Below are positions 3,509 through 27,807 of a DNA stretch of 64,000 nt, in pieces. A program made the translations under genes and the position numbers. The stretch is from Myxococcales bacterium (GTDB taxonomy: Bacteria; Myxococcota_A; Bradymonadia; REDH01). Location: contig CANMDT010000006.1 of NCBI GenBank assembly GCA_947496715.1, forward strand, positions 1,121 through 65,120, written 5' to 3'. The first letter of the stretch is position 1; the number at the start of each line of letters is the position of its first letter. The notes beneath the pieces are model-generated. The model was not told the origin of the DNA, searched no databases, and saw only the letters and a program-made list of their open reading frames with translations.

Positions 3509-3585
3509 GCTCTACTCCTTTCAAGGTGGCGTCAGGCGCCACGCAGACTGTTTGAATTGTTCAGAAACGTTGGCTTAACAGGGTT

Positions 3586-9080: not shown

Positions 9081-9268
9081 CTGGGTTCCTCTCCGAAAGA
9101 TGGTGCCAACTGTGAGGGATTGCGGCGGGTGTCAAGCAGCAAGTGCCTTGGCAGCCCGTGAGCAGGTTCGCAGAGTTCGGGTTGCAGTTGCGTGGCAGAC
9201 AGGTAGAATGCGCGTTTGAAAGGTGAAGATTCTTGGAGAACGTAGGTTCTCCTGTTGCGAGGCAGGCG

Positions 9269-11035
9269 ATGCAGATTCGTTCGGTACATCAGATTTTTGC
9301 ACTGGTCGTCTTGCTCCTCTCGTCGGGGCTCGCAGCCTGCAGCAGCGACCCTGCCTGCACGACCAGTACTGACTGCGACCGCGGCAAGGTCTGCGACAAC
9401 GGCAACTGCGCCGTCTTTGCCTGCACGGGCGATGATGGATGCGCGAACGAGGATGCGGCGGGCTTTCAAGAGTCATGTGCCTTCCTCGGCAGCGACGGGA
9501 GCTTTGACCCTGCCGCCGGCGGTGTTTGCACATCAGAGGAATGTCAGGGCATTCGCGACTGCGAGGCGGGAACCAGCTGCATCGAGGGCGTCTGCTATGC
9601 GGGCGCGGACCTCTGTGCCAGCGTGACCTGCTCTTCGGAGCAGACTTGTAACCCGGCAAACGGGCGGTGCGAAACGGTCGTCAGCGACCCCTGCGCCGGC
9701 GTCTCCTGCCCGACCGGCCAGACCTGCAATAGCGATACGGGCCTTTGCTCGGGCGCCACCGACTGCCGCACCGGCATCTCCTGCCCGACTGGTCAGAACT
9801 GCAACCCCGATACGGGCCTCTGTTCGGGCGCGACCGACCTCTGCGCCGGTATATCCTGCCCCACAGGCCAGACCTGCAGTGGCGCGACGGGCCTCTGCCA
9901 GGACAACGTTGCTGCAGGCAGCCTCTGCGCCGCCTGCACGAGCGACGCCGCCTGCACAAACGGCAAGTGCGTCACGCTCGCAGCAGGCAGCTTCTGTGGC
10001 CAAGCTTGCACCGCCAACACCGATTGTGGCACAGGGTTCACCTGCTTCGACTTCTCGGGCACCATCGGCAAGCAGTGCATTCCGCTGTCGGGGCGTTGTG
10101 ATGACTGCAACGCCCAGGGATGCAGCGATGGTAGCTACTGCGAGGTCAACACAGGCAACTGCAGGCCCGCGACCCCCTCCTGCTCAGCCTGCCTGAACGA
10201 CCTCCAGTGCGGCGCCGGCGCCGTCTGCGCGCAGCTCGGCACGGGCCGTGTCTGCCTCGACAGCTGCACGGGCGGCGGCTGTGAGTCGAGCTACACCTGC
10301 AGCACCACTGCAGTCCCCGGCAGTCAGCTCTGCGCGCCCTCCACGGGCTCCTGTACCAGCTGCAACCTCACCGCCGGCTCTTGCACCGGCGGCACGCCCG
10401 TCCTTGACCCCATTGCCTGCCGCTGCGTCGGCTGCGTCTCGGCAACCGACTGCGACGCTGGGGAGACCTGCACGGCCTCCGGACAGTGCCTTGCGCAGAG
10501 CGGCACCTGCACAACCTCTACCGACTGCGGCGCGACCGGCTACTGCGTTGAGGGCTTCTGCGTCGACTGCCTGACCGCATCGGACTGCGCGGGCTCCGAC
10601 CTCTGCGTGCGCGGCGTATGCGCCCCCTGTACCTGCCCCACGGGCCAGATCTGCGACCGCACCGGCGCCTGCGTAGACCAGCCCACGGGCGGCTGCGTGG
10701 ACGATGTGGACTGCATCCAGCAGGCACAGACGCTCGGTGATTCGGGCATGGGCGCCACCTGCGATACCGACACGGGCGCCTGCTTCATCCTCTCTGTCTG
10801 CAACCCGTCGGGCGGTCTGGGAACCCCCTCCCGCATCGACCCATTCAACGCGGCCTGCCCGGGCTCCACTACCTGCACCTTTGACATTCTGAGCAGCACA
10901 GGCCGCTGCAACGGTTGTTCTTCCGCTGCGGACTGCCGCACCGGAGAAAGCTGCTACGATTGCGCGGGTACGCCCGTCTGCGTGGATGCTGTGACGCTTG
11001 GTCCGTTTGGCCTCATCATCTGCACGCTGCTCTAG
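9269..11035 (+). CDS. Cysteine-rich repeat lipoprotein (Myxococcus-type disulfide repeat)
   Basis: Lipoprotein signal MQIRSVHQIFALVVLLLSSGLAAC. There are many repeats of C-x-TGQ-x-C-N-x-DTGLCSGATD, and about 100 Cys in total. Confidence 0.7.
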   Translation: MQIRSVHQIFALVVLLLSSGLAACSSDPACTTSTDCDRGKVCDNGNCAVFACTGDDGCANEDAAGFQESCAFLGSDGSFDPAAGGVCTSEECQGIRDCEAGTSCIEGVCYAGADLCASVTCSSEQTCNPANGRCETVVSDPCAGVSCPTGQTCNSDTGLCSGATDCRTGISCPTGQNCNPDTGLCSGATDLCAGISCPTGQTCSGATGLCQDNVAAGSLCAACTSDAACTNGKCVTLAAGSFCGQACTANTDCGTGFTCFDFSGTIGKQCIPLSGRCDDCNAQGCSDGSYCEVNTGNCRPATPSCSACLNDLQCGAGAVCAQLGTGRVCLDSCTGGGCESSYTCSTTAVPGSQLCAPSTGSCTSCNLTAGSCTGGTPVLDPIACRCVGCVSATDCDAGETCTASGQCLAQSGTCTTSTDCGATGYCVEGFCVDCLTASDCAGSDLCVRGVCAPCTCPTGQICDRTGACVDQPTGGCVDDVDCIQQAQTLGDSGMGATCDTDTGACFILSVCNPSGGLGTPSRIDPFNAACPGSTTCTFDILSSTGRCNGCSSAADCRTGESCYDCAGTPVCVDAVTLGPFGLIICTLL

Positions 11036-11041
11036 GGCGCG

Positions 11042-13243
11042 CTACTCGCCCGTAGCCGGCTGCTCGCCGCGACGGGCCTCGTTGACGGCACGCCAGAGGG
11101 CGACCGACCTGTCGGCAGCAGCCTTCGCAACGCTGTCGCTCGCCTTGTCTGCGATGCGGCTTCGGAGCCCATAGAGCGACTCGAGGAGCTCAGGGTAGTA
11201 TCCCGCGAGGGCCTCCTCTTCGATAGCATCGAGCAGCGCCTCTGCGTCGCGTCGGAGGCCGAAGCGGGTGTCGATGGCAGCAAGAAGGAGCCGCGACGAT
11301 GCGGCAGCCTGAGGCATCCCCGCCTTGTCGGCGTAGGTGGCCTGCTGCGCCACGAGGGTGTGGCAGTCGGCCATGGAGGCCTCCGTAGGCTCCTCGTCGG
11401 AGTCCACGCCGCAGGAGAGCCGGATGAGGCCGTCGAGCGCAACCATCGCGTCGCTCCACCCTCCGGCCGCGACGAAGCCGGCGACCGCCTGTACCAACGA
11501 GGCTGCGGCGCTCCGCTTGTTGTCAATCTGCAGCGAGAGTTCAGCGGTATGGAGGAAGAGTCGGGCACGGGCGTGCGAGGGCGGAGCCTCGGCGAGCGAC
11601 TCGCGGATGTCGGTCAGTAGGCCGATCGCGGTGCGCTGCTCGCCGGCGCCGAGCAGTGCGGCGACCCGCTTGAGCTGGAGCACCGACCGAAGCATCAGCG
11701 GCAGCTCCTTGAGCTCCACCGCGGCGCTGCCGAGCACCAGTGCAGCCTGGGCGCCGTCCGCTTCGCCTAGTGCCTCCGCCAGCAGGTAGTAGCTGCGCAG
11801 GAGGAGGTCGTCGCGCTTGGCCGCGCGTGCATCGTTTTGGAGCGTCTGCGCGAGTGCGGCGGCCTCGAGCGGGTCGTTGCCGCGGAGCGCCGTCTCGACC
11901 GCTTCGACGCGGCTGTCCCAGAGCATGTCGGGGTTGGGCTGCAGCGCAGACAGGGTCGCGCTCCGCTGGCGGTCGACCATGGCCGCAGCCTCGAGCCCCA
12001 CGCTGTCTGCGAGCGCCGAGCGAATGTCGAGCGTGTTGAGCTCGGCCCTCTGGTCCTGCTTCTCTCGCGCATCAGCGACGGCGAGCGAGATCACGCGGAG
12101 CGCGTCTCCATCCAGACCAAGGGCGTTCAGATTGGCTGCGTAGATTTCGGTAAGGTGAGAGCGAAGCCCGGCTGGCAGGCTCTCTCTTGCGAGGGCGTCA
12201 CGCGCGATGAATACCGCCTCGGCAAAGTCGCCACGGCGGCTCGCGGCAGAGGCAAGCAGGCTCGGGGCCATGAGGTGGGGTAGGTCGGTCGCCTTGGCGG
12301 CCGGCAGCTCGAGGCCACCGGGGAGCATGCGGATGGCGGTCATCTTGCTGTCGACGGGCGGTTCGCCCACGACGAGATTTGTGACCGCCGCGCCGCCCTG
12401 CGCGAGTGACCAGCCCAGGATGACGCCGAGGTCGCTGTAGGAGAGCTTGGGTTCGATGAGGCGGCCCGGTTCGCTCTCCGCGGGGTCCACCTTTTCAGCG
12501 AGCGAACGGATGGCGAGGTTGGTCACCCCCTGCTCGGCAGCCAGGGTGGAGAGCTCTTCCATCCAGCTGTCCATCGGTGGCTCGGCCCCCTCTGCGCTCT
12601 GGGCGATATGGATCGTGACGAGCTGCGGCGCGCTGCGCTCGGGCCCTGTGAGCATGGCGAGGCCCTTTGCGGGTGCGGTTCCCTGAACGACCGCAGCGAT
12701 CGCGAGATCGCCCTCGATGCGCTGCACCTGGGCGATAGCAACCATGCTGTCCGAGATGCGCTCGGGGCAGCGCTCCGGGTCGAGGTCGAGCAGAGCGTAG
12801 CGTTCACCGACGGCGAGCCGCCGTGCAGCAGCACCGACGAGCGCGACGGAGCGGTCGGCGTTGCGGGTGAAGGCGACCAACTCCTTGCCCGTCGGTGCGG
12901 GCTCAAAGCTGGTGACTGGCGCAAAGGTTGTCGCAGCAAGGGCGTCGCGGAGTTGCAGGCCGAGAACGGTCGCGTTGGCGGGCCGTTCAGGCTGTTGGCT
13001 GCGGCAGAGGTAGCCGAGGAGCGGCGCCTTGGAAGCAAGGGGCCAGTGTGGGGCCTGGACGGCCTGCCAGGTGGTCTTGGCGAGCCCCTTGGAGCCACCC
13101 AACATCCAGCCGCGGTCGGCCGTGAGGGTAATCCGTGCGGGCTGCGCCTCCAAGACGGCTGCTTCGCGCCGCGCCGCGCTGCTGGCAGCACATCCCGTCG
13201 CAGCGAGTCCCAAGAGCAGCAGGAGCGAGGGACGGGTCAGCAT
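11042..13243 (-). CDS. Hypothetical 733-aa lipoprotein. The C-terminal half is helical and TPR-like. No recognisable catalytic motif.
   Basis: Lipobox LLLLGLAATGC. Long ORF with GC3-rich codon usage. The antisense + ORFs have low-complexity translations. Confidence 0.55.
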   Translation of the reverse strand: MLTRPSLLLLLGLAATGCAASSAARREAAVLEAQPARITLTADRGWMLGGSKGLAKTTWQAVQAPHWPLASKAPLLGYLCRSQQPERPANATVLGLQLRDALAATTFAPVTSFEPAPTGKELVAFTRNADRSVALVGAAARRLAVGERYALLDLDPERCPERISDSMVAIAQVQRIEGDLAIAAVVQGTAPAKGLAMLTGPERSAPQLVTIHIAQSAEGAEPPMDSWMEELSTLAAEQGVTNLAIRSLAEKVDPAESEPGRLIEPKLSYSDLGVILGWSLAQGGAAVTNLVVGEPPVDSKMTAIRMLPGGLELPAAKATDLPHLMAPSLLASAASRRGDFAEAVFIARDALARESLPAGLRSHLTEIYAANLNALGLDGDALRVISLAVADAREKQDQRAELNTLDIRSALADSVGLEAAAMVDRQRSATLSALQPNPDMLWDSRVEAVETALRGNDPLEAAALAQTLQNDARAAKRDDLLLRSYYLLAEALGEADGAQAALVLGSAAVELKELPLMLRSVLQLKRVAALLGAGEQRTAIGLLTDIRESLAEAPPSHARARLFLHTAELSLQIDNKRSAAASLVQAVAGFVAAGGWSDAMVALDGLIRLSCGVDSDEEPTEASMADCHTLVAQQATYADKAGMPQAAASSRLLLAAIDTRFGLRRDAEALLDAIEEEALAGYYPELLESLYGLRSRIADKASDSVAKAAADRSVALWRAVNEARRGEQPATGE

Positions 13244-16702: not shown

Positions 16703-18058
16703 CTAGAACCAGCGGTCGATTGAGAAGGCCTCGGTCACCGCTTCACGGTCTCCGTCGGTCGCCCGCCAGATTGCCTCGAGCCTCTCTGCCGGCGCGTAGG
16801 CCGCGCCATTGGGACCCAGCAGCGGAGCGAGGTAGCGGGCCTCGGAGGGGCGATGGTCGGTCTGCTCATCGAGGCCGTCGGCGGCGATTGCGACGAGGTT
16901 GGTTGCGAGGTCGCGCAGCGACTGTCCCCGGAAGTGGCCGCTCAATCCCTCGGTCCGGGCGATTCGGGCCAGCTCCGCCACCGATTCCGGGTTCGCATCC
17001 GGCAGCAGCGCGAAGGCGTTACGACGAGCCGTCTGTGCGTAAAAGATGCCCTTCCAGAGCGCCGGTAGGGCCAGCAGCCAGGGGAGCGGCGCGCAGTCAG
17101 CGGTGCGGGTCTCGATGTAGCTCTTCATCCGCACATCGGGGAAGGCGGTAGAGAGGTGCAGTTCCCAGTCGCCAAGCGTCGGCGAGAGCTCATACTCACC
17201 CGCGAGGTGGCGGCGGAAGGAGCGGCCGGTCCAGTCGAGGTAACGGCCCTCCCGGCGCACGAAGAGCATGGGCACATCGAGCAGCCACTCCGCATAGTCG
17301 GAGAACCGGGCTTCCGGCGAGAGCAGCGCAGGGGGAGTTCCGCATCGGCGCGGGTCGGTCTCCTGCCAGACGGCCATGCGGCTCGACACCTCGTGCGTTG
17401 CGACGCCCAGTTTGTAAGGGCTGCAGGCGAAGAGCGCGGTCACCAGCGGATTGAGCGTGCAGGAGAGCCGGAGCATCTCCATCGCGTCGTCCTCTGTCCG
17501 GTAGTCAAAGTTGGCCTGCACGGTGCAGGTCATCTTCATCATCCAGTGGGCGAGCCGGCCCTGCTTGCCCATGTAGTCTCGCATCACGCCGTAGCGTGAC
17601 TTGGGCACCCAGCCCACCTCTGAGGTATCGTGCCATGGGTGCATGCCAAAAAGCGCCCAGCGCTGGCCGAGCCGCCCGCCCAGTTCGGCAACTTCGGCGA
17701 GGTGGCTACGGAGTTCGGCCTCGGTCTCCTCGATGCGTGAGACAATCCTGCCGGAGAGTTCGAGCTGGCCGCCTGGCTCCAAGGTGATGGCAGCCCCGTT
17801 CTTCTCCAGCGCGATGAGGGCGTCGCCGTCATAGATGGGGCTCCAGCCGTATCGTTCGGAGAGCTGGCGGAGCAGCGCCTCGATGCCCTGCGCCCCTTCA
17901 AACCGAAGCGGCGAGAGGGTCGCCTGGTCAAATCCGAACTTCTCATGCTCAGTTCCGACGCCGAGCAGGGCAGCCCCTTTGCTGCCGCGCGCGAAGGAGG
18001 CGGTGAGGTCATCGAAGCCGCGGAGCGGTGTCTCGTCGTGAAGCTGGTCTCGTGACAT
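16703..18058 (-). CDS. Glutamate--cysteine ligase, family 2 (plant/proteobacterial GCS2 type)
   Basis: 451 aa. Global resemblance to the GCS2 family: ...EHEKFGF..., LEPGGQLELSG, MMKMTCTVQANFDY. Confidence 0.7.
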   Translation of the reverse strand: MSRDQLHDETPLRGFDDLTASFARGSKGAALLGVGTEHEKFGFDQATLSPLRFEGAQGIEALLRQLSERYGWSPIYDGDALIALEKNGAAITLEPGGQLELSGRIVSRIEETEAELRSHLAEVAELGGRLGQRWALFGMHPWHDTSEVGWVPKSRYGVMRDYMGKQGRLAHWMMKMTCTVQANFDYRTEDDAMEMLRLSCTLNPLVTALFACSPYKLGVATHEVSSRMAVWQETDPRRCGTPPALLSPEARFSDYAEWLLDVPMLFVRREGRYLDWTGRSFRRHLAGEYELSPTLGDWELHLSTAFPDVRMKSYIETRTADCAPLPWLLALPALWKGIFYAQTARRNAFALLPDANPESVAELARIARTEGLSGHFRGQSLRDLATNLVAIAADGLDEQTDHRPSEARYLAPLLGPNGAAYAPAERLEAIWRATDGDREAVTEAFSIDRWF

Positions 18059-18080
18059 CGTGCCGAAAGGGGATTGGGAC

Positions 18081-19211
18081 TCAGCGCGTAGGAGCGCTCA
18101 GCAGCCGCGTAACGGCTGGGACATAGAACTGCCAATAGGTGTTCTGCGAGGTGAATGCATCTCGGCGGCGCTCGGTGATGGAGCGGAACCAGGAGAGCCC
18201 AGCGAATCGGTAGCTGCCCGGCTCAAAATCAACGTCCGATAGGTCGGCCGCCATGTAGATGCGGTGCGAGCCGAGGATCACCTTACGGGTCAACAGCGGG
18301 ATGTGTTCAGAGGCGTTCATCTCGCGCAGAAGCACCGGCATGGCAGGCAGGTCGGGCAGGGCGAACTCGGCGAGCACCTCGGTGCCGGGCAGCGCTTCGA
18401 GGACGGGGAACCAGTAGTAGTAGTTTGCGCCGCTCGACGCTTCAGGCAGCAGTTCCTCGCCCTCCGGCGTCAGCATCACGCGGGGCGCGACGCGCGGAGC
18501 ATCGGGGTTGGAGATGAGGAGCAGCCGGCCGTTGCGGTGGATGAAGGCCAAGGTGGGGCCTTCGGGCATGTTGTCGTTGCCATACTGCTGACGGTAGAGC
18601 CGCGGGAGCCAGTGGGGGACATCTGCCGTATCGTACAGGTTGAGAAAGCTACGGCCGGTCCAGCCTGTCCAGTGCACGCCCAGGAGCTCTTCCACGACAG
18701 CGCGCGCCTCTGGCTGCGTGGGCTCTTCGATGCCGTTGAACTCCAAGTAGATGTGGTGGCCTGCGCTGGTAAAGTTTGCAAGAGCGCGGGCGTCGTCGTT
18801 GGAGATGCCGCCGAAGACCTTTTTAGAGAAGTCGATGTGAGCGGTCTCGGTCGCTATGCCGAGGAGGTCGTCGGCATAGACCCCGTAAGAGTCGGTGAAA
18901 AAGATCCACTCCTTGCCGGAAAGGTCGAGCTCGGCAATCGGAGTCTGGACTTCGCGATTGGTCGGGTCGTAACCGGCATGCGAGGTGAGGGGCATCCAGC
19001 GCTCGCCCACGGGGGGCTGATACTTCTCGTGGTTGAGGAGCCAGATGGCGCCTCGGTGCTCGCGCGCAGATTCGAAGGGGACGGTGTAGTCGACCAGGAC
19101 GATCTTGGGCTGCTTCCACGGGGTGAACTGCCAGGTCAGGAACGAGACCCAGACGGGCGCTGTGGCCAGCGCCAGCAGCAGCAGCACGCGGTAGACGTTG
19201 CGAAGGCTCAC
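18081..19211 (-). CDS. Membrane-anchored periplasmic protein of unknown function, co-transcribed with the GT2 synthase
   Basis: N-terminal transmembrane helix LLLLALATAPVWVSFLTW. 376 aa with Trp/Tyr-rich conserved-looking blocks. Its start overlaps the GT2 stop. Confidence 0.55.
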   Translation of the reverse strand: MSLRNVYRVLLLLALATAPVWVSFLTWQFTPWKQPKIVLVDYTVPFESAREHRGAIWLLNHEKYQPPVGERWMPLTSHAGYDPTNREVQTPIAELDLSGKEWIFFTDSYGVYADDLLGIATETAHIDFSKKVFGGISNDDARALANFTSAGHHIYLEFNGIEEPTQPEARAVVEELLGVHWTGWTGRSFLNLYDTADVPHWLPRLYRQQYGNDNMPEGPTLAFIHRNGRLLLISNPDAPRVAPRVMLTPEGEELLPEASSGANYYYWFPVLEALPGTEVLAEFALPDLPAMPVLLREMNASEHIPLLTRKVILGSHRIYMAADLSDVDFEPGSYRFAGLSWFRSITERRRDAFTSQNTYWQFYVPAVTRLLSAPTR

Positions 19212-20608
19212 GAGGCACCAAACCCGCGCCGGGACATGGCGCCCCAGGCCTGAACGCCTCGGAAGTAGTTCACCATGCCGCGGAGCCGCCAGTAGAGCGT
19301 GAGCTGGCGATACCCGAAGTTCTCAATGATGCCGAACATCGTCATGCGGAGCAGGTCGCGCCAGTTGGGGTAGACCGAGAAGGAGATCTCCTCCAGCGCC
19401 AGGGTAGCGACGCTAAGCAGCACACCGAAGAAGAGCGAGACGGTGAGAAAGAGGAGCATGAAGGAGGTATCGACGACTCCGAGCAGGTAGCTGATCGAGA
19501 CCGTCACCAGTCCGACGAGTTCGACGATGGGGCCGAGCATCTCGAAGATGGCGAAGAAGGGAAAGATGACCATGCCGACCACGCCGTAGCGGGGGTTGAA
19601 GAACATGGTGCGATGGCGCCAGATGGAGTCGATGAGGCCGCGGTGCCATCGGTCGCGCTGCCGCCCAAGCTGCTCCAACGTCTCGGGAACCTCGGTGTAA
19701 CAGGTGGAGTCCCAGACGAAGACGATGCGGTAGGGCACATGGTCTTCGCGCATCTGGCGGTGGAGCCGGACGACCAGTTCCATGTCTTCGCCGACGGTAT
19801 CGTGGCGGTAGCCCTGCACCTTGAGCACGGCGTCGCGTGAGAAGAGTCCGAAGGCGCCGGAGATGATCAGCGTTCCGCCAAGCAGATTCCAGCCGACCCG
19901 CCCGAAGAGGAAGGCGCGGAGATACTCGACCACCTGGAAGGCGGGCACGGGCTTCTCGGGCATGCCGATGGCCTCGACCTGGCCGTTGCGGATGGTGCAG
20001 CCGTTCGCCACCCGGACTGTGCCTCCGGTTGCGATGGTCCGGGCGGGGTCGTCGATGAAGGGGAGTGCAAGCCGAAGGAGGGCGTCGGGGCTGATGAGGG
20101 TGTCTGCATCGATGCTGCAGAAGAGGGGGAAGCGGGCCGCGTTGATGCCGCAGTTGAGTGCGTCGGCTTTGCCGCCGTTCACCTTGTCGATGAGCGTAAG
20201 TTTGGGCTCTTTGTAGGACTTGTAGATGGCGACGACAGGCCGGGTCGGGATGACCGCCTGATAGATGGGGTGGACCTCATACATGTCGAAGGCTTCGATC
20301 ATCACCTGCGCGGTGCGATCGGTGGAGCCGTCGTTCACGACGACGACTTCGAACTCGGGATAGCGGAGCGCGAGGAGGGCGCGGACGGAACCTTCGATGG
20401 AAAGGCGCTCATTGAAGGCGGGCGCGATGATGCTGACCGGGTGGGTGTGGTAGCTCCGCAGCGAGCCGTCGAGGTCTGCGGAGATGCGCCTGCGTGCGCG
20501 CAGGAAAATCTCGGCGAGCGAGAGCCCGAAGAGGATCAGGTAGCTGGTGTTCAACCCCACGAAGAAGAAGAGGAAGGCCCAGTCGATGATGTAGATGAAG
20601 CGATCCAA
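19208..20608 (-). CDS. Processive family-2 glycosyltransferase, a polysaccharide synthase of the PgaC/IcaA/NodC/cellulose-synthase type
   Basis: Two N-terminal transmembrane helices, DGSTD, DADT, GGTV..., QRDRWHRG (QxxRW) and four C-terminal transmembrane helices. Confidence 0.8.
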   Translation of the reverse strand: MDRFIYIIDWAFLFFFVGLNTSYLILFGLSLAEIFLRARRRISADLDGSLRSYHTHPVSIIAPAFNERLSIEGSVRALLALRYPEFEVVVVNDGSTDRTAQVMIEAFDMYEVHPIYQAVIPTRPVVAIYKSYKEPKLTLIDKVNGGKADALNCGINAARFPLFCSIDADTLISPDALLRLALPFIDDPARTIATGGTVRVANGCTIRNGQVEAIGMPEKPVPAFQVVEYLRAFLFGRVGWNLLGGTLIISGAFGLFSRDAVLKVQGYRHDTVGEDMELVVRLHRQMREDHVPYRIVFVWDSTCYTEVPETLEQLGRQRDRWHRGLIDSIWRHRTMFFNPRYGVVGMVIFPFFAIFEMLGPIVELVGLVTVSISYLLGVVDTSFMLLFLTVSLFFGVLLSVATLALEEISFSVYPNWRDLLRMTMFGIIENFGYRQLTLYWRLRGMVNYFRGVQAWGAMSRRGFGAS

Positions 20609-20629
20609 GGTGTCGTCTGCTCGGGTGTG

Positions 20630-22078
20630 CTAGCGGTTGGCTTCGAGGTCGCGGACCGAAGTCGCGGAGAAGTTTTCGTCGTCGATATTGAACTCGAAGG
20701 CCAGCGGAGGGAGCTGGTCGGGCGCAACGGCCTCGAGGTAGCCGTCACTGGCAGACAGCGGCGGCAGCTCGTCGAAGGGGGCAAACTGCTCCTCGAAGGC
20801 GAGCGGTGGCAGCGGCGCCGGTTCGTCGAAGCCCCCGTCGGGCAGCGGCTGTGCGAGGATGGAGGTGCCGCCCTCCTCGTCCTCCCAGAAGTTCTCGATG
20901 CCGGAGCGCGGCAGCGGCGCCGGTGCGCCCAGGGGTGCGGCGATGGCGGGGCTGAGCATGGTTGCGCCCCGCCCGAGCAGATAGTTGGAACCCGTATGCG
21001 GGTCTTCGGTGAGGATGCGCTGCGCCATGTCGCGCGCGAAGGGGTCGTTGCTATCAGATGCGATGCGCGCCAACTCTGCGAGGCCGGAATCGCCCAGATC
21101 TCGGAGCGCGGAGGCTGCGTTGAGACGGACCCACCAGCTGGTATCCGAGAGCCTCGTCGCCAGATGTGAGACCATCTCCTTGAGGCCGACGCGACCTGCG
21201 GTTCGCGCAGCCTGTGCGCGGACCTCCCAGCGGTCATCCTCGAGGCCCATAATGATGTCGTCGGGCGCGAGGGTGAGGCGGAGGATGCCCGCCGCGCGAA
21301 AGGCTGCAATGCGGATCTCGTGGTCCTGATCCGTCAGCGCATACTGGATGTAGGGGGCAGAACGGGTGTCGCCCGATAGGGCGAGTACCTCGAGGATGGT
21401 GGCATACAGCCGCGCCTCGGCGCGGGTCTGCGGCGGCTTGCGGAGCAGGGCGCGCAGGCGCGGATGGGCGGCTGAACCGAGGTCGACGAGGATCGCTGCG
21501 ATCTGCGGGCGCGAGATGCCTGCAGGCGTCGCAAGCGAGGCAAGGAGCGGGTCGACAGCGCGGGGGTCGGCGGAGCGGCCGAGGCCACGCGCGGCGGCGA
21601 GTCGGACGGCGGGGACCGGGTCTCGGAGTCTGTCGAAGAGGATCTGCGGCTCGACCTTGCCCTCGAGCATGCCGAGGATACGGACTGCCTCGAGGCGCCG
21701 CCACCAGATGAGGGAGCGGCTGCGACGGACGGCGAAGTCGATGAGTCCGAGTCCTTGGTAGAGGGCTACGAGGTCATCTTGGAGCCTGCTCGCGATGGAG
21801 GAGGCGTAGGCCTCAAGCAGCTCCGCGGCCTCGTCTTTGCGGAGCGGTTTGAGGGTCTTGATGACCTCGGAGAGGGGAATCTCGTTGCTGAGATAGCGGA
21901 CCAGAATCGGTGCGACGCTCCGATTGGCGGCCAACCGTTCGCGCCGCTGCCGGATGCGCCTGAGACGGATCAGGACGACAGCGGCGAGCACCGCGATGAG
22001 CGCAACGAACTGCACGCTGATGAGCCGGACAAAGAGCCGGTAGAGCGGGTCGGTGAGGAGCAGGTCGAAGGTGTTCAT
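20630..22078 (-). CDS. Membrane-anchored HEAT-repeat (PBS-lyase type) protein with an acidic/Pro-rich C-terminal tail
   Basis: Transmembrane helix LISVQFVALIAVLAAVVLI. Repeated D/E-P-x-VR-x-AA-x-ALG HEAT units. The tail carries LPPLAFE twice. The start overlaps the stop of the upstream OMP gene (ATGA). Confidence 0.65.
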   Translation of the reverse strand: MNTFDLLLTDPLYRLFVRLISVQFVALIAVLAAVVLIRLRRIRQRRERLAANRSVAPILVRYLSNEIPLSEVIKTLKPLRKDEAAELLEAYASSIASRLQDDLVALYQGLGLIDFAVRRSRSLIWWRRLEAVRILGMLEGKVEPQILFDRLRDPVPAVRLAAARGLGRSADPRAVDPLLASLATPAGISRPQIAAILVDLGSAAHPRLRALLRKPPQTRAEARLYATILEVLALSGDTRSAPYIQYALTDQDHEIRIAAFRAAGILRLTLAPDDIIMGLEDDRWEVRAQAARTAGRVGLKEMVSHLATRLSDTSWWVRLNAASALRDLGDSGLAELARIASDSNDPFARDMAQRILTEDPHTGSNYLLGRGATMLSPAIAAPLGAPAPLPRSGIENFWEDEEGGTSILAQPLPDGGFDEPAPLPPLAFEEQFAPFDELPPLSASDGYLEAVAPDQLPPLAFEFNIDDENFSATSVRDLEANR

Positions 22079-23610
22079 CGGGCTGCCACCGGAGGCGCGG
22101 CGCGACCAAAGCGACGGGTGAAGCCGAGCGTGAGGGCATGTCGGACGCGGGTAGCGCGATCGGCGCCTGTGTCGGACGGCGCGGTCACGGCGTAACTCAG
22201 TTTTATGGTGGACAGGTAGGAGATGGGGAGTGTGTAGCCGAGATAGGCCCCGACCTGTGGCGAGCCTTCGCGAAGGAGTGCAGGGTCCTGCGACTGGTCG
22301 AAGGGTTCTGTCCCGTAGAGCAGCCAGGCATCCAGGCGCTCTTCATCCGAGATGAGGAGTGTGCCCTTGGCCTGATAGGTGAGGAGCGGCGGTGCAGCGA
22401 CGTCGCCGAAGACGGCCGTCACGCCGGGCTCGAAGAGGAAGCCGTCGAACCGGAGCGCGACGAAGGGGGCAATGAGCTGCACGGTCGGTGTCGTTGCCGG
22501 GGCGCTGCCCGACGCGGGGAGGTCGTAGGAGGAGATGCGGTAGGCTGCGCCAAGCCCGACCCGTTCTCCGAGGTCGATGCTGTTGTCCCACGAGAGGGCC
22601 CAGCTGGGCAGGAACTCGGGGTTGGGCGCAACGGCAAGCGCGAGCCGCGTGTTGTAAATGCTGTTCGGGCGGTAGCGGAGCGAGGGCTCGATGGCGAAGT
22701 CGACGCGGCGTGTCCCGTAACGGCGCGTGTCGAGCACAAAGCCGAGCCCTTCGGCGAACCTGGTGCCGCTATACTCGGCGGCCAGCTGAAGGCTCTGCCA
22801 GTCGGCGTTGCCCTGGCCGGAGGTATCTACGGAGGTGTAGGTGGCGGCTCCGTCGACACGAATCGGCATGAACCGGCGCGCGAGCAGGGCACGCATTGCA
22901 GCCCGCTGCGGGTCGTCGGACTGGGGCGGCAGGGCGTCGAGTTCCTCGGAGAGCCGGGCCAGTTCGTCGCGGTCGAAGAGGACCTGCATAAAGCGGGTGC
23001 GGGCGGCATCGTCTTCGGGCGCTGCTTGAAGATAGGCTGCGTAGCCTTCGATGGCGGTATCGAGGTCACCCGACTGGAAGGCGATCTCAGCGAGGAGTCG
23101 GGTGGCCTCCGTCTGGTCGCTAGCGCTGTCCCGCGCTGCTCCGGCCTCGGCGGCAGCCTCGGCGCGCCGCCCCATCCAGAGTAGAACGCGGGCTGTGGCG
23201 CATCGGAGTTCGCCGTAAGCGGCATACTGAGATTGGAAGGATTGCAGCGTATTCAAGGCGTCGTCGAGGTTTCCCGCGGCGGCCTGAATCTTGGCGTAGG
23301 TGATGGCAACATCAACATCGCCTGGCACGAAGCGGCGGGCGATGCGTGCAGCCTCGAGCGCTTCGCGGAGGTTGCCGGCGGCGAGCGCCTCCTCCGCTTC
23401 GCTGATGAGGCGTGCCACAGAGGGGGTGGCAATCTCAGGAGCGCCTTGCGTCGCCTCGGTCGCGGAGCCTTCGGCCTGGGCAGGCGCAGCGGTGGCGGCC
23501 GAGCCTTCGCCTTCGGCAGCCCGCAGCGTTGCCGGCAGGGCGAGCCACGCGCAGAGCGAGAGGCCCGCAGCCCAGCGGGCGATCGTGCGATTCTGAAGCG
23601 TCACAGACAT
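22075..23610 (-). CDS. Outer-membrane protein: N-terminal TPR region plus a C-terminal beta-barrel (PgaA/BcsC/YaiO-like exopolysaccharide export porin)
   Basis: Signal peptide. TPR-like helices (residues 60-230). The C-terminal 250 aa have alternating hydrophobic residues and end ...LGFTRRF-like strands. Confidence 0.6.
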   Translation of the reverse strand: MSVTLQNRTIARWAAGLSLCAWLALPATLRAAEGEGSAATAAPAQAEGSATEATQGAPEIATPSVARLISEAEEALAAGNLREALEAARIARRFVPGDVDVAITYAKIQAAAGNLDDALNTLQSFQSQYAAYGELRCATARVLLWMGRRAEAAAEAGAARDSASDQTEATRLLAEIAFQSGDLDTAIEGYAAYLQAAPEDDAARTRFMQVLFDRDELARLSEELDALPPQSDDPQRAAMRALLARRFMPIRVDGAATYTSVDTSGQGNADWQSLQLAAEYSGTRFAEGLGFVLDTRRYGTRRVDFAIEPSLRYRPNSIYNTRLALAVAPNPEFLPSWALSWDNSIDLGERVGLGAAYRISSYDLPASGSAPATTPTVQLIAPFVALRFDGFLFEPGVTAVFGDVAAPPLLTYQAKGTLLISDEERLDAWLLYGTEPFDQSQDPALLREGSPQVGAYLGYTLPISYLSTIKLSYAVTAPSDTGADRATRVRHALTLGFTRRFGRAAPPVAAR

Positions 23611-23914
23611 AGCCCGATAGGGTAGCGCGCAAGCGGAGACCCCGCCAGATTTCGCCTAGCACAGGGGCATCTCGCCTGCGAGGAGTCTTTGAGGGTGAAT
23701 CGAGAGCTGAGGGGGAATGTTTCTTCACATGCCAATGATTGCAAAGGGAGGCTTGGGGCTTTGTTGAAGGGCGTGGCAGGGCATAGAAAACTCTCGCGAC
23801 AGCGCCGTGACAGCGAGAGAGCAAAATCCGCTCGACAGGGTGGAAGACTTTGGGTAACATTTGAATTCATGGTCCGAGCGTTCTCGGGCGAAACCTCGAA
23901 CCAAGGAAGATGAG

Positions 23915-24319
23915 ATGGCAAGGATAACGATTGAGGCACGGATCGCGAAGATTCGTCGTGACCGGGAAGCTTTGGAGAAGAAGGAGCAGTCGTTGCTTGC
24001 ACAGAGCACAGACCGGGCCATCAAGAAGATTCTCACGGTCATGAAGGATTCAGGGCTGACTGCGGCGCAGGTGGTCAAGGCTTTGGCGGTTGCGGGCGCA
24101 ACGGCTGCGCCGAACGCGAAGGGGACAAAGGCCGCCAAAACGATTATCAAAGGCGTCAAGCCTGCATTTGCCCCGAAGGCGAAGGGCGGCAAGGTTGCGC
24201 CGAAGTATCGCAACCCTGAGAACGCAGAACAGACCTGGACGGGTCGCGGAATCCCGCCGACCTGGGCTCGTTTGATGCGTGAGGCCGGCCGGCTGAACGA
24301 GTCGATCATTCAAAAGTAG
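23915..24319 (+). CDS. H-NS-family nucleoid-associated protein
   Basis: The C-terminus KYRNPENAEQTWTGRGIPPTWARLMREAG matches the H-NS DNA-binding motif (Y.dEnGe.kTWTGqGRtP). The N-terminus is coiled-coil-like. AAGGAAG ribosome-binding site. It lies in a locally AT-richer patch. Confidence 0.7.
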   Translation: MARITIEARIAKIRRDREALEKKEQSLLAQSTDRAIKKILTVMKDSGLTAAQVVKALAVAGATAAPNAKGTKAAKTIIKGVKPAFAPKAKGGKVAPKYRNPENAEQTWTGRGIPPTWARLMREAGRLNESIIQK

Positions 24320-24514
24320 ACGCAATCTGGAGATGGAATGTCGCGCACTGTCTGAATCGATGCAAATCGAGGGTGACGGTGCGCGATGTCGTTTTGGCCG
24401 AAGCAGAAGGTCATTGTCAGGCCGTCGTCTGCGCTTGATTGAAGCAACGTGCACTCTTACCCAGCGAACCGCCCCGCCGCGCTGAGAGGCGAGAGCGGCA
24501 AACCGAGGAGTGTG

Positions 24515-25576
24515 ATGAGCAGCATCGACGCCACCGCCACCGTTCAAGAATACTATGGCAAAACGCTTCAGACGAGCGCCGACCTCAAGACCAGCGCCTG
24601 CTGCACGCCTGATGCGATGCCGGAGTTCGTAAAGCCGCTCCTGGCGCGCATCCACGATGAGGTGGTGAATCGCTACTACGGCTGCGGGCTCGTCGTTCCT
24701 ACTGCGCTCGACGGCGCCCGGGTCCTCGACATCGGTTCGGGATCAGGCCGCGACGCCTATCTGCTCGCCCAGCTGGTTGGAGAGTGGGGAGAGGTGGTCG
24801 GTGTGGACATGACCGCCGAGCAGCTCGCGGTTGCCCGCTCCCATGTGGAGTGGCACCGCGAGCAGTTCGGGTTTACCCGCGCGAATACGCGGTTCCTCGA
24901 GGGCTTCATCGAGAAGCTGTCGGAACTGCCCCTCGAACCCCACTCCTTTGATGTGGTTGTCTCGAACTGCGTGGTGAATCTCTCCCGACAAGCCAGCGGT
25001 CTTTGCCGGCGCGCGACGTCTGCTCAAGGCGGGCGGCGAGATGTATTTCTCCGATGTCTACTGCGACCGTCGTCTGCCGGAGGCCGTGCGCAATCACCCT
25101 GTGCGCTCTACGGAGAGTGTCTGGGCGGCGCCCTCTACTGGAACGACTTCTTGGGGATGGCGAAGGCGGCCGGTTTTGGCGACCCGCGCCTTGTGACCAG
25201 CCGTCCGCTCGAGATTCTCGACCCGGAGCTGAAGGCGGCCCTCGGCCAGGCAAAATTCTATTCTGCGACCTACCGTCTGTTTGCCATCGATGGGCTGGAG
25301 CCGCTCTGCGAGGATTACGGCCAGGCTGTCATCTACCGAGGCGGGGCGTTGGGCGAGGAGGAGTGCTTTATCCTCGATGGTCACCATGCCATCGAACAGG
25401 GCCGGGTTTTTCCCGTGTGCGGCAATACCTGGCGGATGCTCCAGGACACCCGCTTTGCCCCCTACTTTGACTTCATCGGGAACTTCGACCGCCATTTTGG
25501 CATCTTCCCAGGGTGCGGGACGCTCAATCCGCTCGAGCCCGTGGCAGGCGCTGTTACGGCTGTCGCCTGCTGCTAG
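24515..25576 (+). CDS. arsM: Arsenite S-adenosylmethionine methyltransferase (ArsM-like). The internal 24985-25104 segment is read out of frame because of a compensating indel pair.
   Basis: Motifs CCTPDAMPEF, YYGCGLVVP, VLDIGSGSGRD. The conserved PDKPAVF...GGEMYFSDVY block is encoded only in the alternative frame between about 24985 and 25104. The frame is restored for ALYGECLGGALYWNDF. Confidence 0.7.
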   Translation: MSSIDATATVQEYYGKTLQTSADLKTSACCTPDAMPEFVKPLLARIHDEVVNRYYGCGLVVPTALDGARVLDIGSGSGRDAYLLAQLVGEWGEVVGVDMTAEQLAVARSHVEWHREQFGFTRANTRFLEGFIEKLSELPLEPHSFDVVVSNCVVNLSRQASGLCRRATSAQGGRRDVFLRCLLRPSSAGGRAQSPCALYGECLGGALYWNDFLGMAKAAGFGDPRLVTSRPLEILDPELKAALGQAKFYSATYRLFAIDGLEPLCEDYGQAVIYRGGALGEEECFILDGHHAIEQGRVFPVCGNTWRMLQDTRFAPYFDFIGNFDRHFGIFPGCGTLNPLEPVAGAVTAVACC

Positions 25577-26847
25577 CGGGTGTTGCGGCGGCGCATGGAG
25601 CGTCGGAGCCGTGCGAGCAGGTCGTTGGGCAGGTAGGGCTTGATGAGGAAGTCGTCGGCGCCGACCTCGAAGGCCTTGACGACGCTGTCGTCGCGTGAGG
25701 CGACGGAGGTGACGACGATGGGTGTCTCGTCGTACCGCCTGTCTGCGCGGAGCTGGGCGAGGATGCTGAGTCCGTTGATACCCGGCAGCGAGCTCTCGAG
25801 GATGACAGCGCGCAGGTCGGGGAGGGCGAGCGCGGCGTCGATTTGGGCCCCTGTGGCGGCGATGCGGACGCGGAAGTTCTCGCGTTCGAGGAGCGAGGTC
25901 AGGAACTCCTGCAGCAGCGGGTCGGCCTCGATGACGACGACCAGCGGGAGCTGGTTTTCGACGACGGCGGCGGGCGTGACGATGGTCCGAGCGGGCTGCG
26001 CCGTCGCCTTGAGGAAGAGCGCCTCGAGTTGGGCGATCACCTCGCGGGTGTCGCGCGGCTCGCCGACGGTGAGGGTCGCCGCGACGAGCGGGATGGGGCT
26101 CCTGTCGGAGGCTCCGAGTGCGAAGGGGAGCTCGGAGAGGCGTTCGAGGATGCGGCGCAGCAGGACGATGGCGCTGGCGTCGTCGCAGCCTGCGAGCATG
26201 AGGACGAGCTCGCCGCGGTGGAGGCGGAAGAGGCCGTCGGAGCGTCGGAGGAGCCCGCGGAGTGCCTCTCCGAGCTGTTGGAGGAGCAGGCCCTGTTGCT
26301 CTTCGGTGGCGTTGGCAAGCTTGGCAGCGAGGCCTGGCGCGCCGAGCATGGCGAGCGCGAAGGGTTCGCCGAGCCGCTGCAGGGAGTGGCTGCGGGCCTG
26401 CCAGGCGAGCTGAAAGGCGCGTCGGTTGGGGAGTCCGGACTGTTGGTCGAGCAGGGTCGAGCGCCGGAGCTCGTTGCGGCGCCTGAGGAGTCGGGTGGCA
26501 CAATCGGCTACGGCGTGGCGCTGCAGGGGCTTATCGAGCCGCTCCGCGAGTTCGAGCGCTGCAGGGGGGCGCACGGAGCGGTTGGAGAAGCCGGCCAGCA
26601 TGGCGAGCTCACCTTCGGGCGGCGTCTGGAGCGCAGCAGCGAGCCGGTCGAGTCCCTCATTGGGCAGTTCGAGGTCGATGAGGATGAGCGCGGGGAATTG
26701 CCGCGCGATGGTGGTCAGCGCCCAGTCGACGGCACGAGCCACAACGACCTCACGGTCGAGCGCGGTGAGTGCCTGCTCGGCGATCTTGGCCGCCGCAGGG
26801 TCGTCGGAGATGATGAGGATGAGCTGTTCGGCCCGTTCGATGCGCAT
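25573..26847 (-). CDS. Response regulator with REC-like, degenerate GGDEF and REC domain architecture
   Basis: C-terminal canonical receiver (VVVIEADPLL...DLRAVILESSLPGINGLSIL...FLIKPY). The middle domain starts LLDQQSGLPNRRAF like a GGDEF domain, but the active-site motif reads HRGEL. The N-terminal domain is a degenerate receiver. Confidence 0.65.
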   Translation of the reverse strand: MRIERAEQLILIISDDPAAAKIAEQALTALDREVVVARAVDWALTTIARQFPALILIDLELPNEGLDRLAAALQTPPEGELAMLAGFSNRSVRPPAALELAERLDKPLQRHAVADCATRLLRRRNELRRSTLLDQQSGLPNRRAFQLAWQARSHSLQRLGEPFALAMLGAPGLAAKLANATEEQQGLLLQQLGEALRGLLRRSDGLFRLHRGELVLMLAGCDDASAIVLLRRILERLSELPFALGASDRSPIPLVAATLTVGEPRDTREVIAQLEALFLKATAQPARTIVTPAAVVENQLPLVVVIEADPLLQEFLTSLLERENFRVRIAATGAQIDAALALPDLRAVILESSLPGINGLSILAQLRADRRYDETPIVVTSVASRDDSVVKAFEVGADDFLIKPYLPNDLLARLRRSMRRRNTR

Positions 26848-26859
26848 CGTCTCGCCGGG

Positions 26860-27807
26860 TTAGGCGTGGAGTCCGGTGTCGGCGAGCCAGCGCTCTGCGT
26901 CGAGTGCAGCCATGCAGCCGGTACCGGCTGCGGTAACGGCCTGACGGTAGATATGGTCTGCACAGTCGCCGGCAGCGAAGACGCCCGGAATCTTGGTGCG
27001 GGTGGAGCCGGGCACGACGTTGAGGTAGCCCGCCTCGTCCATGTCGAGCCACTCGGCGAAGGGCTTGGTGTTGGGGGTGTGGCCGATGGCGAGGAAGAGG
27101 CCCTGTGTGGCCATCTCGCTCAGCTCGCCGGTAACGGTGTCGCGGAGCTTGAGTCCGGAGACGCCGGTCTCGCGGGTGCCGAGGACCTCGAGGACCTCGC
27201 TGTTCCAACGGACCTTGACCTTGGGGTTGCTGAGGACGCGCTCCTGCATGACGGCGGAGGCGCGGAAGCTGTCGCGGCGGTGAATGAGGACGACCTCACT
27301 GCACATCTTGGCGAGGTAGGAGGCCTCTTCCATGGCGGTGTCGCCGCCGCCGACAACAGCGATGGGGCGGTCTTTGAAGAAGAAGCCGTCGCAGGTGGCG
27401 CAGGCGCTGACGCCGTAGCCCGAGAGGTGCTGCTCGGACTCGAGGCCGAGATACTTGGCGGAGGCGCCCGTGGCGACGATGACGGCGTCGGCGAGGACGA
27501 CGGTGTCGTCGTCGAGGAAGAGCTTCTTGGGGGAGGAGGCGAAGTCGACCTTCTCGACCATGTTGTAGCGGATGTCGGTTCCGAAGCGCTGGGCCTGCTT
27601 GGTCATCACATCCATGAGGTCGGGGCCCATGATGCCGTGCTCAAAGCCGGGGTAGTTCTCGACTTCGGTGGTGATGGTGAGCTGGCCTCCGGGCTGGATG
27701 CCGGCGAAGAGGAGGGGCTTCATGTCGGCGCGGCCGGCGTAGATGGCGGCGGTGAGTCCGGCGGCGCCGGAGCCGATGATGACGATGGGGTAGACGGTGT
27801 CGCTCAT
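26860..27807 (-). CDS. trxB: Thioredoxin-disulfide reductase
   Basis: GSGAAG FAD motif, CATCDG redox centre and GGGDTA NADPH motif. Confidence 0.9.
   Translation of the reverse strand: MSDTVYPIVIIGSGAAGLTAAIYAGRADMKPLLFAGIQPGGQLTITTEVENYPGFEHGIMGPDLMDVMTKQAQRFGTDIRYNMVEKVDFASSPKKLFLDDDTVVLADAVIVATGASAKYLGLESEQHLSGYGVSACATCDGFFFKDRPIAVVGGGDTAMEEASYLAKMCSEVVLIHRRDSFRASAVMQERVLSNPKVKVRWNSEVLEVLGTRETGVSGLKLRDTVTGELSEMATQGLFLAIGHTPNTKPFAEWLDMDEAGYLNVVPGSTRTKIPGVFAAGDCADHIYRQAVTAAGTGCMAALDAERWLADTGLHA

Follow-up and report, generated by a model that had tools for sequence, protein, structure and literature searches.

Organization of the locus

The window considered here is a stretch of 64,000 nucleotides from a Myxococcales bacterium genome assigned to the Bradymonadia (assembly GCA_947496715.1, contig CANMDT010000006.1, positions 1,121 to 65,120). 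At 18081-23610 it carries four consecutive minus-strand genes, established from the open reading frame (ORF) listing and by direct reading of the strand, which encode, from 5' to 3', a putative outer membrane protein with TPR repeats (OMP), a HEAT-repeat membrane protein (HEAT), a family 2 glycosyltransferase (GT2), and a protein that we refer to as UNK. A preliminary description, made from the letters of this DNA, had given the same four gene coordinates and likened the genes to a synthase-dependent exopolysaccharide (EPS) operon with an unusual subunit set. The coordinates were borne out, and we consider it probable that the operon encodes a synthase-dependent machine, of an uncharacterised type, that spans the envelope and secretes a polysaccharide. 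Its features, and those of the neighbouring genes, are collected in Table 1.

Table 1. Features of the operon and neighbouring genes, with positions in the window (TM, transmembrane; REC, receiver domain)
Feature	Position	Strand	Remarks
Gene 1 (OMP)	22075-23610	-	511 aa, ATG start
Gene 1, Sec-type signal peptide	23518-23610	-	aa 1-31
Gene 1, TPR region	22870-23433	-	aa ~60-247
Gene 1, beta-rich C-terminal domain	22108-22869	-	aa ~248-501; protein ends ...FTRRF
Gene 2 (HEAT)	20630-22078	-	482 aa, ATG start
Gene 2, TM helix	21968-22030	-	aa 17-37
Gene 2, HEAT repeats	21008-21706	-	aa ~125-357
Gene 2, acidic/Pro-rich tail	20633-21001	-	aa 360-482; PPL present three times, twice as LPPLAFE
Gene 3 (GT2)	19208-20608	-	466 aa, TTG start
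Gene 3, NDGSTD	20318-20335	-	residues 92-97
Gene 3, DADT	20099-20110	-	residues 167-170
Gene 3, GEDME	19778-19792	-	residues 273-277
Gene 3, QRDRW	19646-19660	-	residues 317-321
Gene 4 (UNK)	18081-19211	-	376 aa, GTG start
Gene 4, TM helix	19125-19187	-	aa 9-29
Gene 4, GATase1-like/CBM87-like domain	18522-19115	-	aa ~33-230; then beta-rich subdomain and C-terminal amphipathic helix
Gene 4, REHRG hallmark	19050-19064	-	
Gene 4, FTDSYG hallmark	18882-18899	-	
Gene 4, LEFN hallmark	18735-18746	-	
Gene 4, WTGWTGR hallmark	18651-18671	-	
Regulator	25573-26847	-	424 aa; Pfam Response_reg x2, weak GGDEF
Regulator, N-terminal REC with canonical Asp, LILIDLELP	26662-26688	-	
Regulator, I-site RRSD (RxxD intact)	26236-26247	-	
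Regulator, degenerate active-site motif HRGEL	26206-26220	-	RRSD five residues upstream (RRSD-GLFRL-HRGEL)
Regulator, C-terminal REC with Glu at phospho-acceptor, VILESSLPG	25780-25806	-	aa 348-356
GCS2-family glutamate-cysteine ligase-like gene	16703-18058	-	begins 22 nt past UNK stop
Divergent intergenic region	23611-23860	.	250 bp, between gene 1 and H-NS-like gene (ORF map)
H-NS-like small gene	23861-24319	+	H-NS C-terminal DNA-binding domain PF00816, 1.9e-10
SAM methyltransferase gene	24449-25576	+	between H-NS-like gene and regulator gene

The genes are tightly packed. Genes 1 and 2 share a 4-nt start/stop overlap, ATGA at 22075-22078, as the preliminary description had it; the overlap between genes 3 and 4 at 19208-19211 had likewise been given as ATGA and reads GTGA, which is still a 4-nt overlap. 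Genes 2 and 3 do not overlap, 21 nt lying between the HEAT stop and the GT2 start.

The synthase and its HEAT-repeat partner

Gene 3 had been described as a processive GT2 with DGSTD, DADT and QRDRW motifs and TM bundles at both ends. The motifs were confirmed, as were hydrophobic helices at both termini (one N-terminal, several C-terminal), and the protein has the motif set of processive inner-membrane synthases, namely D, DxD, (G/T)ED, QxxRW and a TM channel. Its Pfam matches are Glycos_transf_2, Glyco_tranf_2_3, Glyco_trans_2_3 and Chitin_synth_2, and it also shows similarity to NodC and chitin-synthase models. The best NCBIfam model is PgaC_IcaA (TIGR03937, 125.7 bits, E 2.2e-36), while the CelA model gives 27.7 bits (6.7e-07) against a cutoff of 699. 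By BLASTP against E. coli proteins the closest is PgaC (27% identity over 349 aa, E 3e-26), followed by YaiP (27% over 268 aa, E 1e-12), BcsA (E 0.007 over 85 residues) and NfrB (E 0.16).

These matches raise the alternative that the operon is a divergent poly-beta-1,6-GlcNAc (PNAG) system of the Pga/Ica type, in which the HEAT protein would stand in for PgaD/IcaD and the OMP for PgaA, with deacetylation absent or encoded elsewhere. Besides the ranking of PgaC_IcaA and PgaC as best model and best paradigm match, the predicted TPR-plus-barrel architecture of gene 1 mirrors that of PgaA. We nevertheless regard a PNAG system as unlikely, as the score for PgaC_IcaA is far under the equivalog cutoff of 422.3 bits, and PgaA, PgaB and PgaD have no homologue among the other three proteins of the operon by BLASTP, a search made with the operon proteins and not the whole window. 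The PgaA model reaches only the TPR region of gene 1, its best match there scoring 17.9 bits. The window GT2 is 62-66% identical to GT2s of other Myxococcota, and with the HEAT-linked synthases of Bacillota and Bacteroidota it shares 42-48% identity, against the 27% seen with PgaC, suggesting that the HEAT-linked synthases form a clade of their own.

The product of gene 2 proved to be, as had been read, a single-pass protein with HEAT repeats of the PBS-lyase type, with one N-terminal TM helix and Pfam matches to HEAT_2 (1.9e-23), HEAT and HEAT_PBS. Seven Lys/Arg residues follow the TM helix and two precede it, an asymmetry that suggests a cytoplasmic location for the HEAT solenoid. There are no strongly conserved residues in the family, as would be expected of a scaffold, and we take the protein to be scaffold-like. 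The databases (RefSeq, UniRef) name the family "HEAT repeat domain-containing protein", with no functional annotation. The acidic/Pro-rich tail is absent from HEAT orthologues beyond the close relatives. The PPL motifs in this tail look like short linear motifs for docking.

A GATase1-like protein predicted to lie outside the membrane

UNK had been reported to contain no recognised motif, and no family match was found for it in Pfam, NCBIfam or the sequences of the PDB, with either the single sequence or a profile. It is nonetheless not a rare protein: searching 1.84 billion representative sequences with its profile gave a family of 621 members, named "hypothetical protein" in RefSeq and UniRef apart from one UniRef Bacillota fusion entry called "Family 2 glycosyl transferase". 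A hydrophobic N-terminal helix is present in 133 of 153 members, and positive charge is greater before this helix than after it in 88 members, with the reverse in 19; as the charge lies mostly before the helix, the domain that follows is expected to be extracytoplasmic.

An AlphaFold model built from a 32-sequence alignment (pLDDT 92.1, pTM 0.91) predicts a GATase1-like fold lacking the catalytic Cys. The structure neighbours, with their scores in brackets, are 2gk3 (STM3548, 15.4), 3rht (a GATase1-like protein, 15.4), 4jqs (a ThuA-like protein, 14.2), 6nwz (Agd3, 13.8), 5fms (IFT52, 13.4) and 6s7o_G (OST48, 13.1). The Cys-His-Glu triad of class I glutamine amidotransferases is not retained, there being no conserved Cys among 32 close or 31 cross-phylum members. 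Residues 141-364 of Agd3 constitute the CBM87 carbohydrate-binding module, for which 3RHT and 4JQS are the closest structures, and which itself has no Cys-His-Glu triad and binds polysaccharide through a conserved set of aromatics at the sheet's C-terminal edge (PMC7229062). Aromatic residues conserved across phyla in the UNK family are W27, W57, Y109, W181, W184, W201, W267, F268, Y319 and W360, and further conserved residues are D41, E51, H52, D107, E157, N159, R187, D323 and D326. In the model, the conserved acidic residues and the His appear to lie at or just past the C-terminal ends of the parallel strands.

Binding is the best-supported reading of the role of UNK. No known deacetylase or hydrolase like PgaB, PelA or BcsZ was recognised in it, the GATase1-like/CBM87 fold being all that is shared. 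In the Bacillota, UNK is fused to a C-terminal extension of ~700 aa that may be a glycosidase of the system. This ~700-aa family (alignment A4, at L042 11099-13207, L035 983-3835, L041 1761-4037 on the minus strand, L037 3233-5443 on the minus strand and L084 6232-8766, the L numbers denoting loci from our searches) is a separate gene in L035, L041, L037 and L084. It has many invariant Trp, Tyr, Glu and Asp residues and a motif NAIRVYTLHP, and no match to it was found in Pfam, NCBIfam or PDB sequences.

The putative outer membrane component

Gene 1 had been read as a signal peptide followed by TPRs and a beta-barrel. The TPR portion stands, with Pfam matches to TPR_19, TPR_16 and TPR_14 in residues 75-207 and a confident AlphaFold model. 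The barrel portion stands in part: residues ~250-500 are modelled as ~12 long antiparallel strands with pLDDT ~50-75, from a shallow alignment restricted to homologues of at least 67% identity, and neither Pfam nor the YaiO models assign this domain to a barrel family by sequence.

We considered whether the window OMP belongs with YaiO, and think it probably of the YaiO kind, as the Bacteroidota counterparts clearly are. The window protein has no match to the YaiO model (PF19413 / TIGR04390) even at E 10, and a homologue in L041 matches at E 0.0035, below the cutoff. An HMM of the barrel alone gives no significant result, and the same HMM misses even E. coli YaiO; hhalign yields an end-to-end alignment over 227 columns with E 0.012 and a probability of 3.6%, a suggestive result at most. 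A profile run against single sequences established no link, the alignment being too shallow.

Conservation and gene order

Close relatives at 88-92% identity, labelled as Bradymonadia or "delta proteobacterium" metagenome-assembled genomes (MAGs) from freshwater, keep the whole neighbourhood. For a broader census, the UNK profile was run against 185,579 species genomes, 80 loci were fetched, and partner genes were sought within a 10-kb range by tblastn and iterated HMMs. A HEAT-GT2 pair lies within the fetched DNA at 40 of the 80 UNK loci: 6 of 7 in the Myxococcota, 18 of 22 in the Bacillota, 15 of 24 in the Bacteroidota/Ignavibacteriota group and 1 of 3 in the Sericytochromatia. Wherever either gene was present, the HEAT gene was immediately 5' of the GT2 gene (43/43 loci). 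A search starting from HEAT added three more contigs (L097-L099) with HEAT proteins 30-41% identical to that of the window and the arrangement regulator-(OMP)-HEAT-GT2-UNK, UNK being confirmed there at E 1e-99 to 1e-126. The preliminary description had asked whether the four genes are conserved as a unit, and they are kept together in related genomes and across phyla; since the system is more widespread than was first assumed, the operon is less of a one-off oddity.

The order HEAT-GT2-UNK is the same in Myxococcota and Bacillota. In the Bacillota the clusters read regulator-HEAT-GT2-UNK, with no OMP, while Arenibacter has the order hybrid kinase, REC/Hpt, REC, HEAT, GT2, TPR+YaiO OMP and UNK. 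An OMP of this TPR+YaiO kind (PF19413, 4e-74) is directly 5' of UNK in ~20 Bacteroidota/Ignavibacteriota loci. Natural fusions join GT2 with UNK (P0089), HEAT with GT2 and UNK (P0117), and UNK with a TM segment and HEAT (an ORF in L084), the last making topological sense only if UNK lies outside and HEAT inside. Among the carriers are Bacillaceae, Paenibacillus and Flavobacteriia that can be cultivated, along with predatory Bradymonadia/Myxococcota MAGs.

These patterns bear on two further explanations. One is that the genes are neighbours by chance, or within a lineage only, and form no functional unit, as the orphan UNK genes of the Gemmatimonadota, Acidobacteriota and some Sericytochromatia might be taken to indicate; with 4-nt overlaps at genes 1/2 and 3/4, an invariant HEAT-GT2 pair, the same gene order in three phyla and three types of fusion, we find this hardly credible. 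The other is that the product of GT2 is a glycosylated lipid or a glucan that stays in the periplasm or with the cell, in the manner of OpgH or the hopanoid/carotenoid glycosyltransferases, with neighbours serving some unrelated envelope function. Weak, sub-threshold matches to HpnB, CruG and MdoH-type models are its basis. We judge it very improbable, given that QxxRW, the GED motif and a multi-TM bundle are typical of processive synthases, that three diderm phyla have a linked TPR/barrel OMP where monoderms have none, and that fusions join HEAT, GT2 and UNK.

A putative c-di-GMP-responsive regulator

The gene upstream at 25573-26847 had been described as a REC / degenerate-GGDEF / REC regulator that might supply cyclic di-GMP (c-di-GMP) input. 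Pfam and the motifs confirm this architecture, and the sequence comparisons strengthen the case for such input, the RxxD I-site being retained and the orthologous gene abutting or overlapping the OMP gene in other Myxococcota. A degenerate GGDEF domain with a retained RxxD I-site is a known route by which EPS synthase systems sense c-di-GMP, and the window protein, having lost GG(D/E)EF and kept RxxD, fits this receptor pattern (PelD / YdaK / PssE / PopA type). The combination of a kept RxxD and a degenerate GGDEF recurs in L015, L035, L041, L097 and L098, and the regulator orthologues of L035, L041, L097 and L098 have the same three features. The C-terminal REC domain looks like a fixed phosphomimetic pseudo-receiver. 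We observed its Glu in every Myxococcota version examined, including those of L035, L041 and L097-L099.

The regulator gene overlaps the OMP gene in L035 and L041, abuts it in L098 and lies directly 5' of HEAT in L097. As the regulator gene directly abuts the operon in these relatives, we regard the regulator as part of the system. The Bacillota counterpart, directly 5' of HEAT, has an intact GGEEF and a normal Asp, and the Bacteroidota clusters encode REC and Hpt proteins alone, with no GGDEF. The constant neighbour is a REC domain directly 5' of HEAT, from which we infer that HEAT may act as the adaptor between REC regulators and the synthase.

A model for the system and its weighing

We infer the functional role of each protein, the nature of the polymer and the contact between regulator and HEAT as follows. 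GT2 in the inner membrane would polymerise a nucleotide-sugar, which its nearest relatives suggest is most likely a UDP-HexNAc, and thread the chain through its own TM bundle. HEAT, held by its one TM anchor, would be an obligate scaffold or activator at the cytoplasmic face of the synthase, probably coupling it to REC-domain regulators, and the regulator would integrate phosphorylation and c-di-GMP. In the periplasm, UNK would bind and perhaps process the emerging chain and pass it on, in a role analogous to that of BcsB, and the TPR/beta-barrel protein would carry the chain across the outer membrane. The polymer is possibly HexNAc-based.

Several observations weigh against this model. UNK genes are found as orphans in the Gemmatimonadota and Acidobacteriota (0/18 and 0/4 fetched loci, respectively, with HEAT-GT2 within 10 kb) and in some Sericytochromatia, so that UNK may have a role independent of the synthase. 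Moreover, the closest kin of the window UNK outside its own lineage are the Gemmatimonadota orphans (L001-L006, L009-L012 and L016-L034), at 47-57% identity, compared with 29-36% to the in-operon UNKs of other Myxococcota; since the GT2 is by contrast close to Myxococcota GT2s, lateral exchange or displacement of UNK is suggested. The orphans have BNR/sortilin-like genes or an EAL gene as neighbours in the Gemmatimonadota and S9 peptidases in the Acidobacteriota. In one Gemmatimonadota lineage, UNK is located 11 nt after an EAL phosphodiesterase gene (L004 8901-11191). For gene 1, the barrel model is of low confidence and the apparent relation to YaiO is not significant. The regulator of the window is 2 kb away, with two other genes between it and the operon, and the ~700-aa protein of relatives is missing from the window, whose version of the system is possibly incomplete. 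Finally, the conserved D41, E51, H52, D107, E157, N159, D323 and D326 would fit a catalytic or metal site, and UNK might act catalytically instead of only binding the chain.

This last point can be taken further, with UNK as a polymer-modifying or polymer-cleaving enzyme (a glycoside hydrolase, lyase or esterase of a new kind, built on a GATase1-like scaffold) that takes the part of BcsZ, PgaB or PelA, the rest of the model being the same. The first six of the residues just named are universal and, in the model, would sit at the classical active-site edge of the fold; the extracellular domain fused to UNK in the Bacillota has glycosidase-like sequence features, and the family occurs away from synthases as well. 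Yet the Cys-His-Glu triad is lacking, no CAZy-type family is matched by sequence in Pfam or the PDB, and the nearest structures of known function (Agd3 CBM87 and GH42 domain B) use the fold non-catalytically, and we consider the enzymatic version rather doubtful, favouring a chain-binding UNK within the secretion machine.

What is understood of synthase-dependent EPS secretion comes from a few systems (those for cellulose, PNAG, alginate, Pel and Nfr), each of which brought new insight into polymer synthesis, gating by second messengers and passage through the envelope. The present gene set would add another, together with two accessory families that have no functional annotation. More tentatively, we raise the possibility that HEAT-GT2-UNK, joined in diderms by a TPR/YaiO-type porin, constitutes an unrecognised, phylum-spanning secretion family on a par with Bcs, Pga, Pel, Alg and Nfr. 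Its synthase would be gated via a cytoplasmic HEAT adaptor that reads REC regulators, not via a site of the PilZ, MshEN or PgaD type, with a GATase1-fold co-polymerase outside the membrane and a product that could be an undescribed polymer. If this is true, the inputs would be a phosphorelay only in the Bacteroidota, a REC-GGEEF cyclase in the Bacillota, and a REC / I-site-only GGDEF / phosphomimetic pseudo-REC protein in the Myxococcota. These three regulatory solutions on the same core (phosphorelay only, active cyclase and I-site receptor) would provide a natural comparison, and the occurrence of the genes in cultivable strains makes the system genetically testable in tractable hosts. It could explain unidentified biofilm matrix polymers of soil, marine and freshwater bacteria.

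Surroundings of the operon

Downstream of UNK is the GCS2-type gene, followed in order by rpsB and tsf. It may be co-transcribed with the operon, in the window lineage only. We saw no terminator-like site in the gap between UNK and this gene. On the other side, the 250-bp divergent region is presumed to hold the promoter and regulatory region of the operon. Promoter and terminator scans of the locus gave matches at chance level only, and the sole sigma-70-like match in the spacer points toward the H-NS-like gene. A repeat search of the upstream region found nothing notable, and an Rfam scan of 17500-27500 found neither a c-di-GMP riboswitch nor any other family. The H-NS-like protein could be a silencer of the operon. 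Its gene is kept in the 91%-identical relatives L007 and L008. Elsewhere in the window are a PilY1-domain protein at 50617-54222 (plus strand), amid a run of same-strand ORFs at ~47-56 kb, and an AcrB-type RND pump at 59490-62585 (plus strand); the large ORFs at 278-3589, 9233-11035 and 11042-13243 have no Pfam match.

Comparison with known systems

The operon follows the logic of Pga and Bcs and fails the sequence tests applied here for both. By BLASTP of the operon proteins, the whole window not being searched, genes 1, 2 and 4 show no similarity to E. coli PgaA, PgaB, PgaD, BcsB, BcsC, BcsZ, BcsE, BcsG, NfrA, YbcH, YaiO or YaiS. The claim that the subunit set is unlike that of characterised synthase-dependent pathways thus held for the Pga, Bcs, Nfr and Yai accessory proteins of E. 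coli. So did the absence of a deacetylase and of PilZ, MshEN, BcsB and PelD domains, none of which Pfam, NCBIfam or BLASTP finds in the four operon proteins; nor do these proteins or the flanking genes examined contain a polysaccharide-deacetylase domain (PgaB/IcaB-type CE4). A full-text literature search, the coverage of which leaves out most subscription journals, returned no description of a HEAT-partnered synthase system.

The likeness to Pga/Ica lies in a synthase nearest to PgaC among the paradigm synthases, in a small or single-pass membrane partner encoded beside it, and in a predicted TPR + beta-barrel exporter and plausible c-di-GMP control. The operon differs in having neither a PgaB/IcaB deacetylase nor a homologue of PgaD/IcaD, whose place is taken by a cytoplasmic HEAT solenoid of 482 aa, and in having an additional periplasmic GATase1-like protein; its OMP is far shorter than PgaA, with no detectable similarity in the barrel, and its GT2 falls below the PgaC_IcaA family cutoff.

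With Bcs, the operon shares a processive GT2, a predicted TPR/barrel exporter and a membrane-anchored periplasmic partner, BcsB having flavodoxin-like folds and contacting the nascent chain. However, the window synthase has no PilZ domain, the operon has no BcsZ-type GH8, and UNK has no sequence similarity to BcsB (Pfam, BLASTP and profile) and is anchored at its N-terminus, whereas BcsB is anchored at its C-terminus. NfrA-NfrB-YbcH, the c-di-GMP-activated poly-ManNAc system of E. coli, likewise combines its GT2 synthase with a TPR/barrel OMP and one small auxiliary protein, but the operon has no MshEN domain. E. coli YbcH was considered as a counterpart of UNK and ruled out, as BLASTP finds no similarity between them.

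PelD, YdaK (of B. subtilis ydaJKLMN) and PssE (of Listeria) resemble the window regulator in combining a degenerate GGDEF with an RxxD I-site and in being encoded with an EPS synthase. The window GGDEF is instead soluble and placed between two REC domains, the second with Glu for the phospho-Asp, and the other subunits of the operon are not known to be related to the Pel, Yda and Pss proteins. B. subtilis ydaJKLMN was also considered as a match and set aside; it is not known to encode a HEAT-repeat protein or one resembling UNK. YdaL and YdaN have been described only as required for EPS production.

The yaiO locus of E. coli provides a further parallel, as the OMP of the Bacteroidota/Ignavibacteriota members is a bona fide TPR+YaiO barrel and in E. 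coli, too, the gene for YaiO neighbours that for a membrane GT2 (YaiP). Neither HEAT nor UNK is present at the E. coli locus, which includes an acyltransferase and a deacetylase, and the window OMP is not significant against the YaiO models. The K-12 genes yaiO-yaiX(IS2-disrupted)-yaiP-yaiS (L093, 380069-384616) are cryptic and resemble another unstudied synthase-type cluster.

Finally, UNK can be set beside the CBM87 module of Aspergillus fumigatus Agd3. The two are only ~10-15% identical, and no relation shows at the level of sequence; UNK stands alone as a TM-anchored protein with an additional beta-rich subdomain and strongly conserved acidic residues, whereas the Agd3 module is appended to a CE18 deacetylase. 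Their likeness is in the lost triad, in conserved aromatics that in UNK would lie at the C-terminal sheet edge and in an association with exopolysaccharide machinery.

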